From a virus: a stretch of 64,000 nt of DNA. Shown one piece after another: positions 17,898 to 31,341 of the stretch; positions within the stretch are counted from its first letter, which is position 1; each line of letters starts with the position of its first letter. The position numbers and the translations under genes were made by a program. The stretch spans positions 1 through 64,000 of IMG/VR virus record IMGVR_UViG_3300037502_003155; one strand, given 5' to 3'. The notes under the pieces are model-generated. The model saw only the letters and a program-made list of their open reading frames with translations, did not search any database and was not told the origin of the DNA.

Positions 17898-18476
17898 CTA
17901 GGCTAGTGCGGCGATCATCTCGGCTTTGGATAGGTGGCGACCTTGCCCGTGGGCATTCCGCCATTTCACCCCAGCGGCCTGGCAACGGCAGCGCAATTCG
18001 GCACTGGTCACGGGCTTGGGTGCCTCCACCTTGACCACAGCGACGGCCACGGGTTGGCTGATGGTAGCGGCCATGTCGGGGTAGTGCTGGTTGGTGGCAG
18101 GGCTGAAGGGGTCAGATTCGACCATTTTCCCGGCGTCGGGAATATGGTCGGCGGGGAGGCAGGCGGCAACCTCCAGCCGTTCGGGCAAGCTCGGCAGGTC
18201 GTCCTCGAGGGCGATGGCGGGAAGCTGCTGGGCAGCGATGAACCATTCCCAGGCTGCGCGGGTCAGCATCCCGGCCCCGATGGCGTAGCACATCACCACG
18301 CCGATGATGGTGCCGATGTCCTCGTAGCGGCGGACGGCTTCAGGGCCGATAAAGGTGTTGACGTACCAGTGATAGGTGGCCTCGGTCTTGGCGGTGGCGA
18401 CTTCAGAGAACTGATACCAGCGCTCGGCGGCGAGGGCGATATTGTCGATAGCGTTAATAGGTGCGGCGTAAGTCAT
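17898..18476 (-). CDS. hypothetical protein, C-terminal LEM/Rho-N-like motif
   Basis: ATG at 18476; AELR..C...G.......LSKAEMIAAL. Confidence 0.55.
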   Translation of the reverse strand: MTYAAPINAIDNIALAAERWYQFSEVATAKTEATYHWYVNTFIGPEAVRRYEDIGTIIGVVMCYAIGAGMLTRAAWEWFIAAQQLPAIALEDDLPSLPERLEVAACLPADHIPDAGKMVESDPFSPATNQHYPDMAATISQPVAVAVVKVEAPKPVTSAELRCRCQAAGVKWRNAHGQGRHLSKAEMIAALA

Positions 18477-18539
18477 CGATTTCAAAGCTCCAAAATCTTG
18501 TGGTGAGGTGGCCCCTGTAGCGGTGGGGCCTACCTTATT

Positions 18540-18619
18540 GGCGTGGCTGCTGCTATTCCAGCCTGTCACCCATGCAACGCTTGGGGGGCGTTCCCGCTGC
18601 TGTTCCGGGACTGTCACCC
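18540..18619 (-). ncRNA. tandem structured leader RNA motif
   Basis: two units GGGTGACAG-stem-GAAYAGCAG-stem-ACGCC with different but paired stems, downstream of a TTGACA promoter. Confidence 0.45.
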
Positions 18620-18674
18620 TATTTGTATTCCGCCGGGGGGCGGCTGGTAGGCCGTGTTGCCTGCCGATGTAATA

Positions 18675-18704
18675 ACAATAACTGCCCCCCGGTTATCCTG
18701 TCAA
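18675..18704 (-). promoter_or_regulatory. sigma70-type promoter
   Basis: TTGACA-N18-TATTGT. Confidence 0.6.
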
Positions 18705-18889
18705 CCCTTTTCTGAAATTTTTTTCAAAACCAGAACTTCGCCCTTGGCAATAGCGTCCAAAAGCTTGCTAACGCTAGGGCGTGAATTGTAGGTATAGCCT
18801 AGGGTCTGGGCGATATTGGCAAGGGCCAAAGGCGTATCGGTATCTACTCTGGGCTTAATGGTTGTGCGATTTTCTTTGCGGCGGGGCAT
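18701..18889 (-). CDS. small RHH-like regulator
   Basis: beta-strand then helices (TIKPRV...SVSKLLDAIA). Confidence 0.55.
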   Translation of the reverse strand: MPRRKENRTTIKPRVDTDTPLALANIAQTLGYTYNSRPSVSKLLDAIAKGEVLVLKKISEKG

Positions 18890-18938
18890 GGCGAGAATAC
18901 GTTAAACTGTACCCCAGTTATAGCAGAGAGGACGCCCA

Positions 18939-19091
18939 ATGAGAACCCGTAAGGAACGCGCCACTGATCTCGCCACCATGCAGCAGACGGTGGCAGAAGC
19001 CCAGGCCCAAGCCGATGCTATGCAGCGCAAGATGGAGCAGCAGCTACGAGAATTGGGGGACGCCAAGGCCATGATCGAGGAGTGCTGGTAG
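18939..19091 (+). CDS. small coiled-coil protein (50 aa)
   Basis: MRTRKERATDLATMQQTV...EECW*, GAGG SD, followed by a hairpin; below the ORF-track cutoff. Confidence 0.45.
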   Translation: MRTRKERATDLATMQQTVAEAQAQADAMQRKMEQQLRELGDAKAMIEECW

Positions 19092-19297
19092 CCTACGCAT
19101 AGCTCCAACAACAAAACCCCCGGCACCACACGGCACCGGGGGTTTGTGTTAGTCATCTTCCAGAGTCTCCCAAGACAGCTTCTCAGCGTAAGCTTTGACT
19201 TGGGCCACGATACGCTTTGGGACTCGCATCGTGGTGAGAAGTTCACCTGGGGGGTAGGGTGAGTGGCCTCGCCCACCCCGGCTGTAGTCGCGGCCCT

Positions 19298-19603
19298 TTA
19301 TGCGGGCACTTTTGGGATTTCTACCACAGTCCCCACGGGGGGGGCGGTGCGGCTGTGGCGGGAAGTGACGACAGCACCGCCTAGACGAGGGTCGAAGGTG
19401 CCGACCCATTGAGTGGTGTGGTAATGATGGGCAAGGGCGGCGTAGAGCCACACAGGCCCACGTCCAGAGATGACTACGCCTTTGGTGCCGTCCACGTCGG
19501 GCGGGTTGAGGGTAGCAAGGTCTGCGGGTTCGCAGACCCCGCCGGGGATCTCGAACTCAAGCAGGGTCGCCCCTGCGAAGGGAGTGGTAGTGAACTGAAT
19601 CAT
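19298..19603 (-). CDS. csx3: Csx3/Crn3 cyclic-oligoadenylate ring nuclease, phage-encoded
   Basis: GVVISGRGPVWLY..LAHHYH...W...FDPRLGGAVV..RHS signature; AAGGAGG SD before ATG 19603. Confidence 0.88.
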   Translation of the reverse strand: MIQFTTTPFAGATLLEFEIPGGVCEPADLATLNPPDVDGTKGVVISGRGPVWLYAALAHHYHTTQWVGTFDPRLGGAVVTSRHSRTAPPVGTVVEIPKVPA

Positions 19604-19665
19604 GCTGCCTCCTTGGGCTGGTTGGGTGTGCAGGGCTTTACCTGCGGGGCTTGAGAGCGGTGACA

Positions 19666-20133
19666 TTAACGACGCTTGACGGGCCGGGGCTTGCCACTGG
19701 GGAGCGACTTGAACTCAGCCCCGACCCATTGGCCGAGTTCGTCCAGCACCCACTGAGGGATCGGGATAGGTTCCCCTTTGTAGGCCGCTTTTGTGCGACC
19801 CAAGGCAGGGTTCCGGCGGCGGATAAATCCGCGCTCCAGAGTTTTTTGGGTTTTGTCCTCAATGACCGCGACCATTTTCGCGGGTACGCGAAAATCTTTG
19901 TAAACATTTTCGTCAATAGACCATCTTTTCATGTCAATAAACAACCCGTCTTTGATTACCCGGGTTTTTACTTGGTCTACTTCAACCAGATCGGTTTTTT
20001 TGCCGATCCGGATAAAAGTTTCCCAGTCCTCTCGACTAGGAACGACGGTGCCCTCAGCAAAGAACCATTCTGGGCCCCCATCCGAGGTTCCAGGCATAAA
20101 CCCCCGGTAATGTCTCAACGCATCAGTTGCCAT
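19666..20133 (-). CDS. hypothetical protein (candidate anti-defence)
   Basis: preceded by the repeated 58-bp leader; same operon as csx3. Confidence 0.65.
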   Translation of the reverse strand: MATDALRHYRGFMPGTSDGGPEWFFAEGTVVPSREDWETFIRIGKKTDLVEVDQVKTRVIKDGLFIDMKRWSIDENVYKDFRVPAKMVAVIEDKTQKTLERGFIRRRNPALGRTKAAYKGEPIPIPQWVLDELGQWVGAEFKSLPSGKPRPVKRR

Positions 20134-20150
20134 AGTCTTATCGCCGCCCC

Positions 20151-20779
20151 TCTTTTCGGCGCACCCTGCCCACCATGCAGGTTTCTTGGGGATAGTGTTG
20201 GTGGAATGCAGGGCTTTACCTGCTGAGCTTGAGATCGAGTGTGGCTATTCGTCCAAGGCGTCCAAGGCGTCCAAGACAATGTTAAACATTGCCTCAAACC
20301 GATACCACTCGGGCTCGGTCGTTGATTCGAAAGAAACGACATCTCCCGAATCGGAATCGACAAACCTCAGCAGCCAGTCCATCCACTCTGGGATAACCTG
20401 CCCGTAAGCAGGGTATCCGTGAATGGGAGCAACGGGGACGGAAACCCCGAAGACGGATTTGATGTAGCGGCGGTAGAAGTCTGGCCGCACATCGCAATGC
20501 GGGCCGTCTCCACCTCCGTAGCTGCGAGCTATGCCGAGAGCGGCATAGCCTACAATCACCTCCATCTCGTCGATGGAGTCACACCCTTCGTACTGAAGGA
20601 TGTGAACTTCCTCCCATTGGGAGGTGGAAGGGTCTTCCATGTAAGAGCGTTCGGTGCGCTCTTCAGAGACCACGCTGAAATACTGGTCTTGGCTCAAACG
20701 ACTGTTGTACGCAGGCATAATCTTTTCGGCGTACCCTGCCCACCATGCAGGTTTACTTGGGGATTTAGTTGGTGGAATG
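20151..20779. repeat. 58/59-bp direct repeat (20151-20208, 20721-20779) preceding consecutive genes
   Basis: TCTTTTCGGCGYACCCTGCCCACCATGCAGGTTT..TTGGGGAT..GTTGGTGGAATG in both copies. Confidence 0.9.
20245..20718 (-). CDS. acidic hypothetical protein (candidate anti-defence)
   Basis: D/E-rich 157-aa ORF, first gene after a strong promoter. Confidence 0.65.
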   Translation of the reverse strand: MPAYNSRLSQDQYFSVVSEERTERSYMEDPSTSQWEEVHILQYEGCDSIDEMEVIVGYAALGIARSYGGGDGPHCDVRPDFYRRYIKSVFGVSVPVAPIHGYPAYGQVIPEWMDWLLRFVDSDSGDVVSFESTTEPEWYRFEAMFNIVLDALDALDE

Positions 20780-20867
20780 GGGCACCGTGCAACTGCTGCA
20801 CTTTTGGCCGCTTGCTAGGGTTGTCGTGGCTGCTCCACCGTGCCCGGTTGCAGTAGCGCCCCTCTCG

Positions 20868-20954
20868 TGAACGCTAGCGGGACTCGAACCCACCATTTAA
20901 CTTGCCTAGGGCTGACATCCTGAGAACCCTGCCTTGCGGGCTGGTTCAGTGCCC
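20868..20954 (-). ncRNA. tRNA-like structured RNA (not a canonical tRNA)
   Basis: T-arm GTGGG-TTCGAGT-CCCGC, imperfect closing stem GGGCACTG/TAGCGTTC, GCAA-capped hairpin; begins just after a promoter. Confidence 0.4.
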
Positions 20955-20963
20955 ATGAACATA

Positions 20964-20992
20964 ACTGTATACGGTTTGTTTAATGTTGTCAA
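20964..20992 (-). promoter_or_regulatory. strong sigma70-type early promoter
   Basis: TTGACA-N17-TACAGT. Confidence 0.75.
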
Positions 20993-20999
20993 CGCCTTT

Positions 21000-22751
21000 T
21001 TATAAATCCAGTAGCAGGTGCCCCACATCATTTGGAATCTGGTATCGTGCTGGGCTACCCCCATCGCTCACCACAAAGCCGTCATCGGTGGCCATGCGGT
21101 CGAGGGTGAAGGCTACCTGGTCAGTGGTCAGTTTTTTGAGAGCTGTGGATTGTTGCCGGATCTCTGAGGCCAGCATGGGGGCGTTGGCCTTGTGCTCCAG
21201 GATGGCAAGAATGAGTTGCTTAACCTCGCTCATGGTTTCGGGGGTTACGGCCACCGCAACCTCAGGGAAAGTCCCCAATGTGTTGAGCGTGGGAATCTCA
21301 AGCTCTGGCGTTTGCCCCACGAACAACCGTGACGCATGAACGGCAAACGTGCGGTTCACTGCTGACTGACGACGTAGGGCAGTGTGATAGGTTTGAGCCG
21401 ATTCGCGCTCAGACTTTGCGCGGATCAGTGCATCGTCCGTGAGCACGTTGTCGATGGTTTTGGCGTTGCCCTCCATGGGCTTGCCTTCGTGGTCTTTGGT
21501 CGTTTTGCAGCCCAAAGCTAGGGTGCAAATGTTGTCGCGCAATCCGCTGGATAACGTGTTTTTGCCAGGGGAAAAGCTGATGTCTCCGAGCAAATGGCTT
21601 TGGTTTACCAAAATCATGTGCATATTTAGCTCACGGCCCGCCACGATAAGATCAAGAAAAACGGTGGTGATTAGCTTTTGCTCATCCTTCTCAAGCCAAG
21701 CCAGCTTGCCTTTGGCTAACATCCACTCATCGAAGACAAACCAGAGATGTTTTCCCACGGGTTGCCCTTGATTCAGCCGTCCTTTGCGCTTCGTTAGCTC
21801 AGTATTGATCTGGTTAAACAATTTCAGGTAATCGTTATCCGACTGCATAAACCGAGCGGCGGGCTTAAGGTTTGCCCAGTCAGATCCTTTAGGGTCAGCA
21901 ATGGTGATAAGGTGCCCCTGGTTGGCCAGATGGGTACAGAGATTCCGCAGCACCCAGGTTTTTCCGCTACCTGTAGTAGCAGCGATCAGAATGTGTATTT
22001 GGCTAGCCAGGTAGGGAACAAAGGCTTGTGGCAATTCGGCGGGTTGCCAGCCAGTAGATTCAGCTTCCATCGGGGGCGCTACAGCCTCTATGTGTTCCCA
22101 CGGCTCCGTCACCATGTCAGGGGTGCCCTGGGGGGCTTCTATGGGCTGGGTCGGCTGGTCAGTTCCTTCAACAGCCGAGGATGATTCTTGAGGCGAGGAT
22201 GATTCTTGAGGCTTCTGAAGCCATTGGAACGGGCCTAGTTCAGTCGGCACGCCCTTAGGCTCAATCCCCCAATCCTCTAGCAGTTGCTCTAGCCGTTGAA
22301 TGGGCAGCATGACGTTAGTGGGGTCGCTAGGGTCAATCCAGCAATAGACCTCTCCATATTTGGCCAAGGGGTGCTTGTCCTTGGGGCTAAACTCAATCCA
22401 GCCTGTATGGCCGAGCATCCCTTCAATGGCTCGGTTGATGGCGGCTACGTCGTAGCGTTTTTTAAGTTGTGCGCGAAGATCGTTGATGCTGGGATGCTTT
22501 GGGGTAGAGGCGCTCAAGATTTCCTGCAATTCATCCCCCTCTTCCTTAGGGCGAAACTTTTTGATTTCGTCCAAAAAATAAGCCCCCATACCAACAACCG
22601 CCGCAACACTGGCAATGGGCAGTGTTGCGGCGGTTGTATATAAAACAACGATACCCCCACCCACAACGATTGCCCTTTCTAGCAGCCCGCCGCTAGCTGG
22701 TTTAATGAGCGCGGGCTGTTTCTTTTTCGGGCTGATGGTGGTCAGGGTCAT
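21000..22751 (-). CDS. FtsK/TraB/VirD4-like membrane-anchored ATPase with C-terminal winged helix
   Basis: two N-terminal TM helices, Walker A AATTGSGKT, DPKG, Walker B FVFDE, GRELNMHMILVNQS, terminal wHTH-like segment. Confidence 0.8.
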   Translation of the reverse strand: MTLTTISPKKKQPALIKPASGGLLERAIVVGGGIVVLYTTAATLPIASVAAVVGMGAYFLDEIKKFRPKEEGDELQEILSASTPKHPSINDLRAQLKKRYDVAAINRAIEGMLGHTGWIEFSPKDKHPLAKYGEVYCWIDPSDPTNVMLPIQRLEQLLEDWGIEPKGVPTELGPFQWLQKPQESSSPQESSSAVEGTDQPTQPIEAPQGTPDMVTEPWEHIEAVAPPMEAESTGWQPAELPQAFVPYLASQIHILIAATTGSGKTWVLRNLCTHLANQGHLITIADPKGSDWANLKPAARFMQSDNDYLKLFNQINTELTKRKGRLNQGQPVGKHLWFVFDEWMLAKGKLAWLEKDEQKLITTVFLDLIVAGRELNMHMILVNQSHLLGDISFSPGKNTLSSGLRDNICTLALGCKTTKDHEGKPMEGNAKTIDNVLTDDALIRAKSERESAQTYHTALRRQSAVNRTFAVHASRLFVGQTPELEIPTLNTLGTFPEVAVAVTPETMSEVKQLILAILEHKANAPMLASEIRQQSTALKKLTTDQVAFTLDRMATDDGFVVSDGGSPARYQIPNDVGHLLLDL

Positions 22752-26636: not shown

Positions 26637-27206
26637 CTAGTCTTCTAGCACTCTCTTAACCTTGCGGGCTACGTCAGAGCAAATGCCCTCACACTGATCG
26701 GCCCCCCAAGCCTGGGTATCTTCAATCGTTCGGCCCGACTTAATCTCTGCCAACGTTAGGGCGGCTAACTCCAGTTCATCAAGGCCGTCCCTAGTTGACT
26801 TTACCTTGCGCGATGCCTGAAGCTGCTTGGCTGTCTGCCCAAATAGCCCCACGTTCACCGCATTGGTGCATCGGGCATATTCATGGGGGTAAGCAACGCC
26901 GTGATTCTTGAGCGTGTCAGTAAGCTGGTATCGCGCCACCTTGCCGTCAAGGCGTGCCTTAATCTGCTTGTCTGACCAACCTAAGCGACTGTATTTGCGA
27001 ACGGCATGGTCAAGTGCTTTATCTGGGTCGGCAATGATGCCAGCAGCCCACCGCCGAAACTCAGCCCCACGCTTACCAGGGCACAGCATGAGGATTTGGT
27101 ACATCCCCTCTTCATTGGTAACGGGGGTTTCCCGTTGCCCACGACCGGGGAATTTGAAGTCCGAACAAAAGTCGCTAACCTCAGGATTCTGCTTTTCAAG
27201 TCGCTG
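26637..27206 (-). pseudogene. N-terminally truncated Bro-N/antirepressor-like gene
   Basis: frame continues upstream of the listed ATG as QRLEKQNPEVSDFCSDFKFPGRGQRETPVT until a TAG inside int sequence; no native start. Confidence 0.7.
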
Positions 27207-28272
27207 CCGCTACATGAGGGATGCTAGCCCCCTGCTCCAGCAGGTGACTGCCTAGGCTATGCCGTGCGGAGTAGGGCACTCGGTCAACGCCCGCCGCTTT
27301 GCAGATCCGTTTCCATGTGCGTTGGGAAAAATCGCAATCATTGATCGGGTTGCCCCGTGGGGTTAAAAATATCAAGTCGTCCGGCTTAGCCCCGGCGGGC
27401 CTCCGGGCGTTCAGCATCGCCACCATGTCAGCGTGCAGTGTCAGTGTCCTCACCTTGTTGGTCTTGGTGCCCTTTCTTTGCCGTGCCCAGCCAGCCGCCT
27501 TGCCATCGGGGGCTCGGGCGAGGGCTTCAGCAATGGTTGCCACACCGCGCTCTAGGTCAATGTGTCGCCACCTCAAGCCCGCTGCCTCGCTAACTCGCAG
27601 CCCCAAGTAGAACAGGGTCATTACAAAATCATGGTAGGGCTCGGTGCAGGGATCAGCCTTGGTGGCATCCAAGAAAGCCCGGATCTGCCCAGCAGTTAGC
27701 GGTGCCCGTTTTGGGTTGGGTTGGCGGCTGGCTTTGATGCGTGGCACGTCTGTCCACGGGTTGGACTCTAAGTGCCCCCGCTGCATGGCCCATTGACCAA
27801 AACTTCGCAGCCTCGATAGATTCTGGTTCGCCACAATGCCCGACTGAGAGGCCCGTAGGCGTTCGAGAAAGGCCGCTGCCTCTTTGGTGGTCACAATGTC
27901 CTTTCCCCATCGCTGTAGATGCCCTAGCAGTGGCTTATAGCTAGCGGTAATGGTTTGGCCGCTGGTGCCGTCCTCCCTGCGATGCTCGATAAATTGCTCG
28001 AACAGATCGGCGGTGGTTAGCCGGGGTGGCTCTGGCTCCGGCTCTGGCTGGGGTTTGTATTTGGCTAGCGTTGGGTCAAACTGCTCACGGGCAATATCAG
28101 CCTGAATCTCGGTGGCTAGTATCTCGGCACGATGGCGGTTGAGGGGGCTATCGGGTAGGCCAATGGCAAGCTGATACGGTCGCCCCTGGTGTGTCCACCT
28201 CAGGCGTAGCATTTCATTTCGCGTTGACACTGACACTGCCCCCCGTTTGTTACGGCGGTTTTTCCTGGGCAT
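27196..28272 (-). pseudogene. int: tyrosine integrase, C-terminally truncated
   Basis: Arm-binding N-terminus, GLRVSE, K, YSARHS present; ends at VAAAT* without LGH or catalytic Tyr. Confidence 0.85.
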
Positions 28273-28974: not shown

Positions 28975-31341
28975 ATGGTTGTGAGTCAACAAAGACAAAT
29001 TGACTTTCCCGCTAGCGCCCCCGTGGCGTATCCGCTGTTCTACCGCACCTATAGCCGCGTCACCGACGAGGGCCAACGCGAATCCTGGGAACAGGTCTGC
29101 CGCCGCACTGTGGCGGGACTCAAAGAACTGGGGGCGCTGAATGACGACGAAACCGCACTGCTGGCCCGGATGCAGCGCCAGGTTGTTGCCTTGCCCTCCG
29201 GTCGGTGGCTATGGGTCGGCGGAACTGACTGGAGCAAGAAACCTGAGAACTTTTCGGGTAGCTATAACTGCACAAGCACGAACGTACTAGACTGGCGTGC
29301 CTTTGGCTTGATGATGGATTTGGCCATGCAAGGCTGTGGCACCGGGGCCGTGCTTGAAGATCGGTATATCAGCCAGTTGCCCGTGATTCGCAATCGGCTG
29401 AACGTGGTGGTTGATGGGGAGATTGGTAGCGCCCGACCTGAGGAAAAGCACGATAGTACGGTATTGGCCATCAATGGCAATCGCGTCATCATCCAGGTGG
29501 GCGATAGTCGCCAAGGATGGGCAGAGTCTTATCAGAAGTTGCTAGAGCTATCCAGTGCAGGGCGCTTTGATGGCCCTGTTGATGTGGTTGTTGACCTGTC
29601 CTCTGTACGCCCTTCCGGGGCACGTCTGCGGGGCTTCGGGGGCATTGCTAATCCAGTTAAGCTGCCGGGGCTCTATGGCCGTTGTGCGGCGATTCTGAAT
29701 AAGGCCATTGGACGAAAACTCAATGCCGTAGAATGCTGCCTTCTGATTGATGAGGCGGCGTCAGTAGTGGTGGCGGGCAATGTCCGAAGATCAGCGGGGA
29801 TGCGTCAATTTGACAGCACCGACGCCCTTGCCGCCACCGCCAAAGACGACCTTTGGCAACAAGACGCCGAGGGCAACTGGCGGATCGACCCAGAACGCGA
29901 TGCCTTGCGGATGGCCAACCATACCCGTGTGTTCCACCAAAAGCCTAGCCTGGAGGACTGCACTGCCGCCGTGCAGAAGCAGTTTTACTCTGGCGAGGGT
30001 GCGATTCAATGGGCGGGTGAGGCCGTCGCCCGCTCCAATGCGGATCTGCTCAACACCCCTGAAAAGAAACGGGAATTTATTGCCCAGTATGTTGAGGGCA
30101 AGGGCGCGGAATATTTAGGGGCATTGATGGCCGATGGCCCTAGCTTTGAAAGTGAGTTACAACACCGATTGCAGCGCTATGCCCTGAATCCATGTGGTGA
30201 GATAATCTCCGCAGATTTCTTTTGTAACCTTTCTGAGGTGCATCTGAATCAACTCAATCCGCACGATTTCGAGGCTCAAAACGACGCCTTCACAGCAGCG
30301 GGGTTATCGGTGGCTGTGTTGTTAAACCACCAATTTGTTGAGCCACGTTATAAACAAGCCCGTGAATTTGACCCCATCGTAGGGGTATCCTTTACCGGGC
30401 TATTCGACTTCTTTGTGAATGCCTTTGGCGTAGACTGGCTGCGCTGGTGGGAGGCGGGACGGCCTAGCAACTGGAGCAGCTTGGGAGAGGATGCCGTATG
30501 GATTCCCCTTGGTGAAAAATTCAGCCAGGCCAACGCCGAATTTATGGCCCAAAGCGAATACTTCAGGTTGCGTGAACAGGAATACCTCACCCGCTGGGGC
30601 AACATCGCTCACCAAGCCGTGTGGGACTACTGCGACCGCCACGGCCTAAAGCGCCCCAACCGTTGCACCACCGTGCAGCCTGCGGGATCTAAGTCCCTGC
30701 TAACCGGGGCATCCCCAGGCTGGCATCCTCCCAAGGCACAGCGCTTTATCCGGCGCGTCACCTTCCGCAAGGGCGACCCCGTGGCCCTGGCCTGCATCGA
30801 CTATGGCTATACCGTGGTGCCCTCGCAGTCCGACAAAGACGATGACGGCAACCTACTCAACGATCCCTTCGACCCCCGTTGTACCGAGTGGCTGGTAGAG
30901 ATTCCGGTAGAGGTGCCCTGGGCTAACCTGCCGGGTGCCGATGCCATCCACATCGAGCGATTCAGTGTGGCGGCACAGTTTGATTTCTACATGCAGGTGC
31001 AGAAGCACTATGCGACCCATAACGTTTCTAGTACCTTGGAAATGCGCGAGGGCGAAATTGAGGAACTAGCTGAGCTAATCCACAACGCCATCGAAAACGA
31101 CGAGGGCTATATTTCAGCGGCCCTCCTAGCCCGCTTCGATGACCTCCAGACGTTTCCCCGATTGCCCTTTGAGCCCATCGACAAGGCCACCTATGATACG
31201 CTGTCAGCGGCGGTGCTAGAACGGCGGGCGACTGATGATTTCCACCAAGCTTTGGCCCGGTACGATGCCGGAGAATTAGTCGAGGCTGGCCCCGCTGGTT
31301 GCGACTCGGATAAGTGCATGATGCCGGAGAAAAAGCGCTAA
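28975..31341 (+). CDS. nrdJ: class II (adenosylcobalamin-dependent) ribonucleotide reductase
   Basis: YRTYSR, SGRWLW, YNC, NPCGEI, CNLSE, TVQPAG, C-terminal GCDSDKC; no intein. Confidence 0.95.
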   Translation: MVVSQQRQIDFPASAPVAYPLFYRTYSRVTDEGQRESWEQVCRRTVAGLKELGALNDDETALLARMQRQVVALPSGRWLWVGGTDWSKKPENFSGSYNCTSTNVLDWRAFGLMMDLAMQGCGTGAVLEDRYISQLPVIRNRLNVVVDGEIGSARPEEKHDSTVLAINGNRVIIQVGDSRQGWAESYQKLLELSSAGRFDGPVDVVVDLSSVRPSGARLRGFGGIANPVKLPGLYGRCAAILNKAIGRKLNAVECCLLIDEAASVVVAGNVRRSAGMRQFDSTDALAATAKDDLWQQDAEGNWRIDPERDALRMANHTRVFHQKPSLEDCTAAVQKQFYSGEGAIQWAGEAVARSNADLLNTPEKKREFIAQYVEGKGAEYLGALMADGPSFESELQHRLQRYALNPCGEIISADFFCNLSEVHLNQLNPHDFEAQNDAFTAAGLSVAVLLNHQFVEPRYKQAREFDPIVGVSFTGLFDFFVNAFGVDWLRWWEAGRPSNWSSLGEDAVWIPLGEKFSQANAEFMAQSEYFRLREQEYLTRWGNIAHQAVWDYCDRHGLKRPNRCTTVQPAGSKSLLTGASPGWHPPKAQRFIRRVTFRKGDPVALACIDYGYTVVPSQSDKDDDGNLLNDPFDPRCTEWLVEIPVEVPWANLPGADAIHIERFSVAAQFDFYMQVQKHYATHNVSSTLEMREGEIEELAELIHNAIENDEGYISAALLARFDDLQTFPRLPFEPIDKATYDTLSAAVLERRATDDFHQALARYDAGELVEAGPAGCDSDKCMMPEKKR

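Follow-up and report, generated by a model that had tools for sequence, protein, structure and literature searches.

A stand-alone Csx3/Crn3 ring nuclease gene in a cassette operon of a temperate phage, probably a freshwater cyanophage: a candidate anti-type III CRISPR protein

Viral ring nucleases are the best-understood phage means of defeating the signalling arm of type III CRISPR systems. So far AcrIII-1 and AcrIII-2 have been put forward as families of viral ring nucleases, and homologues of Csx16, Csx20, Crn4b and Csx15 have been seen in phages. A survey of 2025, which searched 28,114 phage genomes with models for Crn1-3, Csx15, Csx16 and Csx20, reports 36 genomes with AcrIII-1, four with Csx20 and two with Csx16; Crn3 is absent from its list (PMC12409355). 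Crn4b (PMC12830947), AcrIII-2 (PMC12751052) and, rarely, Csx15 (bioRxiv 10.64898/2026.10.26.761840) were later additions in viral records. Our full-text literature search found no report of a phage Csx3.

Cells use Csx3/Crn3 to remove cyclic tetra-adenylate (cA4), by which type III CRISPR raises the alarm. The A. fulgidus enzyme, AfCsx3, presents a ‘D69 face’ made up of a loop with S44, G45 and R46, of I49, D69 and R71, and an ‘H60 face’ made up of three absolutely conserved histidines, H57, H60 and H80; I49, together with I22, contacts cA4 through the main chain (PMC7371418). Csx3 of M. mazei brings some relief from Csx1 immunity in E. coli (PMC7371418), and the relief that cellular Csx3 gives in E. 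coli is partial only, less complete than that given by AcrIII-1 (PMC8284326).

The DNA analysed here, hereafter the window, is a stretch of 64,000 nucleotides, the first 64 kb of a 76,925-bp linear, metagenome-derived IMG/VR record that is 91% complete. A preliminary description had reported a stand-alone Csx3/Crn3 gene in it, read as a host off-switch captured by a phage and turned into an anti-CRISPR, and had pointed to the literature as the place to look for phage-encoded precedents; the search and survey above supply none. We think it probable that the phage Csx3 is a functional Crn3-type ring nuclease acting against type III CRISPR immunity, encoded by a temperate phage that is probably a freshwater cyanophage. 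The gene and its ribosome-binding site are as follows.

19298..19603, minus strand: csx3/crn3 coding sequence, 101 amino acids plus stop, a stand-alone ring-nuclease domain
19608..19614, minus strand: Shine-Dalgarno sequence AAGGAGG, 4 nt upstream of the csx3 ATG (19603), found by sequence inspection

Coordinates and strand had been given correctly, and the family assignment held when profile models were run on the protein. Pfam model PF09620 (Cas_csx3) matched it with an E-value of 6.5e-27 and 93.6 bits (cut-off 21), and the NCBIfam equivalog model TIGR02579, ‘ring nuclease Crn3/Csx3’, with 87.8 bits (cut-off 55.4). Cas_csx3 was the sole above-threshold Pfam match, in line with the earlier statement that the protein is unrelated to AcrIII-1. 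By sequence, the closest solved structures are the five entries for AfCsx3 (3WZG, 3WZH, 3WZI, 6VJG and 6YUD; locus AF1864), at E ~1e-18. An AlphaFold2 model, computed from an alignment of 33 sequences, had a pLDDT of 94.3 and a pTM of 0.86. When this model was searched against the PDB with Foldseek, the top 13 matches were all AfCsx3 chains (TM 0.85-0.87, rmsd 1.0-2.3 A, 40-44% identity; TM 0.86 and rmsd 1.1 A for 3wzg/6yud), the next were to the Csx3-like domain of Cat1, and no DUF1874 structure was among the PDB matches.

Alignment to AfCsx3 identifies S46, G47, R48, V51, D71 and R73 as the equivalents of the D69 face and H59, H62 and H83 as those of the H60 face. The two residues that contact cA4 through the main chain are valines here, V51 for I49 and V23 for I22. 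With V51 as the exception, the residues of both faces are invariant across the 33-sequence alignment, as is the DPR motif D71-P72-R73; the signature first noticed, a His pair (H59/H62), DPR and a distal His (H83), was therefore read correctly. Among 42 sequences comprising the phage clade described below and seven IMG/VR copies, the cA4-contact and catalytic residues are retained in 41-42. With these named residues kept, both half-sites of the composite active site are intact, and judged by its sequence the 101-aa protein is a true, complete and canonical stand-alone Csx3/Crn3.

The same residues bear on whether the protein might act mainly by binding. Phages are known to counter cyclic-nucleotide immunity with sponges, and a Csx3 that sequestered cA4 in head-to-tail filaments, with little turnover, would be one. 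Catalytically dead AfCsx3 H60A does form fibres with cA4 (PMC7371418). For the phage protein we hold this to be very improbable, since a pure sponge would not need the catalytic H62, D71, R73 and H83, all of which are retained and near-invariant in the phage clade.

The stored gene call for this locus in the 76,925-bp record, P0122, appears to be a 65-aa truncation starting at an internal GTG at V37, so the full 101-aa Csx3 may be absent from the annotation of the record.

Phage genes surround csx3. To its left are a dCTP-deaminase-like gene, genes for an FHA protein and a C5 methyltransferase, and a set comprising a PrimPol-DUF3987 primase-helicase, RusA, SSB and a DnaQ-like exonuclease. To its right comes a membrane FtsK/HerA-like ATPase, then integrase and RNR, and then the structural genes, among them those for head protease, MuF and portal. 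Two of these genes, lying between the csx3 region and the structural genes, are used below.

27196-28272, minus strand: tyrosine integrase with arm-binding domain
28975-31341, plus strand: class II ribonucleotide reductase (RNR)

The DNA had been called phage, rightly in view of its portal, MuF, head protease, integrase, PrimPol-helicase, RusA, SSB and RNR genes, and the tyrosine integrase marks the phage as temperate. The integrase lies mid-record and is bordered by phage genes to left and right, so csx3 does not fall in flanking host DNA. Two independent contigs, L091 and L093, also tie csx3 to the same phage flanks. A linear, metagenome-derived contig that is 91% complete, and in which IMG's own gene call is a 65-aa truncation, might still be suspected of carrying csx3 as host DNA, through chimeric assembly or as a decaying passenger. 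We give hardly any credence to this suspicion, with phage genes on either flank and the same linkage in independent assemblies. The ORF is intact and has a strong Shine-Dalgarno sequence, and dN/dS among five csx3 sequences was 0.12-0.23 at dS of 0.34-0.76, so that csx3, where present, is maintained by purifying selection. A cellular source is no better supported, the best match to the phage Csx3 among GTDB species-representative genomes having at most 56% identity.

Csx3 is usually found in a type III CRISPR-Cas locus, and csx3 of the phage is not associated with one. Neither Cas10 (TIGR02578, TIGR02577) nor the Csx1 HEPN domain (PF09455) was found in the whole 76,925-bp record, and a k-mer scan found no CRISPR-like array in the 64-kb window; the same scan detected arrays in 25 cellular loci and in one metagenome contig. 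For Cas10 and Csx1 across the record, and for arrays across the window, the earlier remark that no cas genes or arrays are nearby is thus confirmed.

Among cultured phages the nearest are without exception cyanophages: Aphanizomenon phage CL131, which has the closest cultured portal (38.6% identity), Synechococcus S-CBS4, Planktothrix PaV-LD and Nodularia phages. Parts of the window were found in freshwater and lake metagenomes from more than 12 studies. Taken together, these relationships and this occurrence make a cyanobacterial host likely. The G+C content of the window is 54-55%, well above the base composition of Nostocales and Planktothrix. A search of 401 cyanobacterial genomes gave no close prophage, the best portal match having 35% identity, and none of the spacers in 26 arrays from the fetched loci matched the window. 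Megablast of 20 kb against phages and plasmids gave no match.

A search of 5.8 billion clustered proteins with the phage Csx3 gave 143 matches. About 27 of the clusters, at 70-90% identity to the query, form one clade (SH-aLRT 86), and the addition of eight sequences, one of them from IMG/VR record L004, gives a clade of 35 rows (SH-aLRT 88). This phage clade is known only from metagenomes and viral records, with no sequence from the GTDB species-representative genomes, and is marked by a short AP(P/A)VG insertion and a proline-rich C-terminal tail. A tblastn search with Csx3 of 50,697 cultured-phage records gave no match, a search of plasmids gave just two cyanobacterial crn3 genes, and no PHROG family matched Csx3.

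An IMG/VR scan yielded eight loci, seven of which (L002-L008) have a full-length stand-alone Csx3 that retains all catalytic residues. These seven records are 7-273 kb long, three have direct terminal repeats, and Cas10 was found in none. Besides csx3 they have nothing in common with the phage of the window: the neighbours of csx3 are DnaG primase, RecA and RNR in one setting, an intein-bearing terminase, helicases or another terminase in others. Six of the seven Csx3 copies are scattered over the tree, which suggests several acquisitions of Csx3 by viruses. IMG/VR scans with Csx3 alone or with the neighbouring ATPase gave no relatives, with the proviso that near-identical records may fall outside such a scan.

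Phylogeny separates the phage clade from the Csx3 of cyanobacterial CRISPR loci. In the genome scan the latter are fusions of about 310 aa that form a clade of their own (SH-aLRT 97-99). A joint clade of phage and cyanobacterial Csx3 was neither supported nor rejected by the AU test (p-AU 0.72), which used 65 rows and 99 columns, against 208 rows in the full Csx3 tree. Of the interpretation offered in the preliminary description, then, one part stands, a stand-alone Csx3 in an accessory operon of a cas-less phage; the step by which a host off-switch was captured is not established by the tree, there being no cellular member of the phage clade above 56% identity, and such an origin is neither backed nor rejected.

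The accessory operon is 1.9 kb long, runs on the minus strand from promoter to terminator, and has csx3 as its last enzyme gene. The order is promoter, leader of about 240 nt, repeat A, gene 1, repeat B with repeat A, gene 2, repeat B, Shine-Dalgarno sequence and csx3, spacer of about 70 nt, 26-codon ORF and terminator hairpin. In the direction of transcription its elements, apart from csx3, are:

20964..20992, minus strand: putative sigma-70-like promoter, by consensus match (TTGACA, 17-nt spacer, TACAGT; 10/12 matches)
20721..20779, minus strand: repeat A copy 1, about 58 nt with a CCTGC..GCAGG hairpin, immediately upstream of gene 1 (families D1 and D3)
20245..20718, minus strand: gene 1, 157 aa, orphan cassette gene
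20151..20237, minus strand: intergenic unit of repeat B copy 1 (20207-20237) and repeat A copy 2 (20151-20208) (families D1-D3)
19666..20133, minus strand: gene 2, 155 aa, orphan cassette gene
19629..19659, minus strand: repeat B copy 2, 31 nt with a 5-bp GCAGG/CCTGC hairpin, between the gene 2 stop and csx3
19149..19229, minus strand: 26-codon ORF (MRVPKRIV...EDD), between csx3 and the terminator
19114..19145, minus strand: intrinsic-terminator-like hairpin of 14 pairs, 9 of them G-C, with a T-rich tail, at the operon end

The putative promoter directly follows the stop of the upstream ATPase gene. Gene 1 and gene 2 each lack a Pfam or PHROG match and a usable Atlas match. Repeats A and B are confined to the operon within the window, where repeat B has just two exact copies; its copy 2 (family D2) is 90% identical to 20207-20237 and is present in L091 and L093. 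Both repeats fold no better than shuffled sequences (z 0.03 to -0.97), which leaves a structured-RNA role for them unsupported. A 17-mer of repeat A also occurs in 11 IMG/VR contigs that have no other similarity to the window, and we take this for chance. A longer, 122-aa reading of csx3 from an ATG at 19666 is unlikely: the extension is repeat B sequence, which is non-coding at the other copy, it is not conserved in the relative L090, and most homologues begin MI(Q/T)F.

Downstream of csx3, the 26-codon ORF keeps its ATG and TAA in L090 and L091, and window and L090 differ in it by 7 synonymous and 5 conservative changes. With start and stop conserved and the changes mostly synonymous or conservative, translation is probable. 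A complete ribbon-helix-helix regulator of the Aca type would need more than its 26 codons. Pairing in the terminator-like hairpin is preserved in L090 although both arms have changed.

Two stretches of the operon outside its genes deserve mention. The spacer at 19230-19297 (minus strand, about 70 nt) hardly varies even among relatives that differ by about 12% in their coding parts. Its fold is somewhat better than that of shuffled sequences (z -2.3), and it may be a regulatory RNA element. The leader contains, at 20868-20954 (minus strand), the T-arm-like motif GGTTCGAGTCC. A tRNA-like leader is unsupported: ARAGORN found no tRNA or tmRNA gene in the window, and Rfam found no family, and nothing meaningful, in 18400-21300.

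The arrangement of the operon varies among relatives. Four short contigs from JGI carry a gene whose Csx3 product has 85-98% identity. In contig L093 csx3 is linked to the ATPase gene, the promoter-leader and repeat A, from which it is separated by an additional repeat B copy and about 1 kb of unrelated sequence. Contig L091 has repeat A and then, after 700 bp of unrelated sequence, repeat B followed by csx3, the small ORF and the terminator; a different insert comes next, and beyond it the downstream sequence of the window resumes. In both contigs gene 2 is replaced by other DNA.

Loss was seen as well when contigs from four lake metagenomes, of four studies, were compared with the operon region. 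Three joints were found, given here by the window positions that they bring together. In 19310->21015, found in two studies, the whole csx3 operon is swapped for 26 other letters, so phage variants that have no csx3 operon co-occur with carriers. In 19660->20141, found in runs X3 and X7 of two studies, gene 2 is missing. In 20204->20780, found in run X4 of one study, gene 1 has dropped out, precisely between the two repeat A copies. These joints, with the swapped cassettes of the relatives, place csx3 in an optional cassette array that recombines at repeats, and the many co-occurring phages that lack the operon show that it is not essential.

Gain and loss of a repeat-delimited module is what would be expected of counter-defence loci, for which it is typical without being proof of the role. 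It is possible, and we propose it only tentatively, that the csx3 operon is a repeat-delimited, recombination-shuffled cassette array, in effect a small integron-like anti-defence locus without an integrase of its own, in a widespread lineage of freshwater temperate cyanophages. Csx3 would then be a recurrent cassette, the A/B units would be the exchange points, and genes 1 and 2 and the cassettes of L091 and L093 would encode further counter-defence proteins.

Promoter and dispensability are also where another use of the same enzyme has to be weighed. Csx3 made by the prophage could damp cA4 for the benefit of the lysogen, conferring tolerance of self-targeting or resetting immunity, and give no help in lytic growth. 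Type III targeting depends on transcription, and a host type III spacer could target a transcript of the prophage; the phage is temperate (integrase at 27196-28272), and the operon promoter is host-type, sigma-70-like. The description of cellular Crn3 as a reset switch (PMC7371418) counts in the same direction. We nevertheless think it unlikely that this is what the gene is kept for, the operon being dispensable in many co-occurring variants; the mechanism would be chemically identical to that of the explanation we prefer, and the two are compatible.

In our preferred reading, a counter to type III immunity, the host type III complex would recognise phage RNA and its Cas10 would make cA4. Dimers of the phage Csx3 would stack head-to-tail around cA4, bringing the D71/R73/S46-G47-R48 face of one dimer against the H59/H62/H83 face of the next to form a composite, Mn2+-dependent site, which would cut cA4 to linear di-adenylate. 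Provided that csx3 is expressed in time, cA4-activated effectors of the Csx1/Csm6, Can, Cam and CalpL types would never come on, or would go off early, and by removing cA4 csx3 would act as an anti-type III CRISPR gene. Exchange or loss of cassettes at the 31-58-nt repeats would keep the module optional in the phage population. Because the kinetics of Crn3 are cooperative in enzyme concentration (PMC8284326), a strongly expressed phage copy could be effective.

Two cyanobacterial loci illustrate the signalling that such an enzyme would meet.

L074:7908-8861, Planktothrix: Csx3-domain fusion directly upstream of Cas10, type III-A
L081:7902-8825, Chrysosporum: Csx3-domain fusion directly upstream of Cas10, type III-D-like

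Nine further loci, from cyanobacterial or cyanobacteria-like genomes, have Csx3 fusions of about 310 aa. The cyanobacterial fusions have Cas1 and an array nearby and match TIGR02579 with 100-113 bits. Their C-terminal domain (about 195 aa) has no NCBIfam match and is called AAA+ in the literature; Slr7080 of Synechocystis is an example of such a fusion. In Synechocystis the effector SyCsx1 is cA4-dependent, and deletion of the csx3 homologue left interference unchanged (PMC9676260). The prevalence of type III systems in cyanobacteria, on which the preliminary description drew, is matched to this extent: filamentous cyanobacteria of the sort infected by the nearest cultured phages include some that have cA4-signalling type III systems with Csx3-domain genes.

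With the phage of the window itself not tied to any host type III system, there is some room for a substrate other than cA4, either a different cyclic oligonucleotide (from CBASS or another cOA) or RNA 3′ ends, and for a role unrelated to type III immunity. The earliest activity reported for AfCsx3 was that of a Mn-dependent deadenylating exoribonuclease (Yan et al. 2015, relayed in PMC7371418), and the ring nuclease Csx15 also cleaves CBASS signals (bioRxiv 10.64898/2026.10.26.761840). Such a substrate is decidedly improbable for the phage protein, since Crn1-3 are reported to be cA4-specific (PMC12830947) and every cA4-contacting residue is conserved in it. An anti-CRISPR role for the phage Csx3, to go by residues, fold and setting, is credible and well motivated.

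Type III systems abound in cyanobacteria, and phages account for part of the control of bloom-forming species; csx3 would accordingly give a direct handle on the conflict between cyanophage and host. Presence and absence of the operon in lake metagenomes amounts to a natural experiment on whether csx3 variants track hosts that signal with cA4. Small, soluble-looking and mesophilic, the protein lends itself directly to the published Crn3 assays.

Set beside the known systems, the phage Csx3 is closest in kind to AfCsx3 and M. mazei Csx3, with which it shares family, a size of about 100 aa and fold (TM 0.86, about 42% identity). Those enzymes cleave cA4 in a Mn2+-dependent manner between stacked dimers, and by analogy the same chemistry would be expected of the phage protein, which differs from them in being phage-encoded, outside a type III locus and without cas neighbours. 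With the cyanobacterial Csx3-AAA+ fusions it has the Csx3 domain in common and, probably, the host phylum; the fusions are about 310 aa long, stand at Cas10, Cas1 and an array and form a separate clade, whereas the phage protein is the bare domain.

Its most likely working analogue is AcrIII-1 (DUF1874; cellular form, Crn2), a small virus-encoded enzyme that destroys cA4 and so neutralises type III CRISPR signalling. AcrIII-1 has an unrelated fold, metal-independent catalysis and no sequence relationship to the phage Csx3, and it has been tested in vivo. AcrIII-2, a viral SAVED ring nuclease, has like Crn3 a composite active site that sandwiches cA4 (PMC12751052). AcrIII-2, Csx16, Csx20 and Crn4b belong to protein families other than Csx3, and are precedents for cellular cOA-binding or -cleaving domains that occur in phages and are presumed to be anti-CRISPRs (PMC12751052, PMC12409355, PMC12830947). 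As with the viral ring-nuclease anti-CRISPRs, the phage Csx3 is virus-encoded and lies outside a CRISPR locus. A canonical phage Crn3 would add a metal-dependent, cooperative, filament-forming enzyme to the viral ring nucleases, and would show that viruses, too, make use of the ring nuclease found most often in euryarchaeal and cyanobacterial type III loci.
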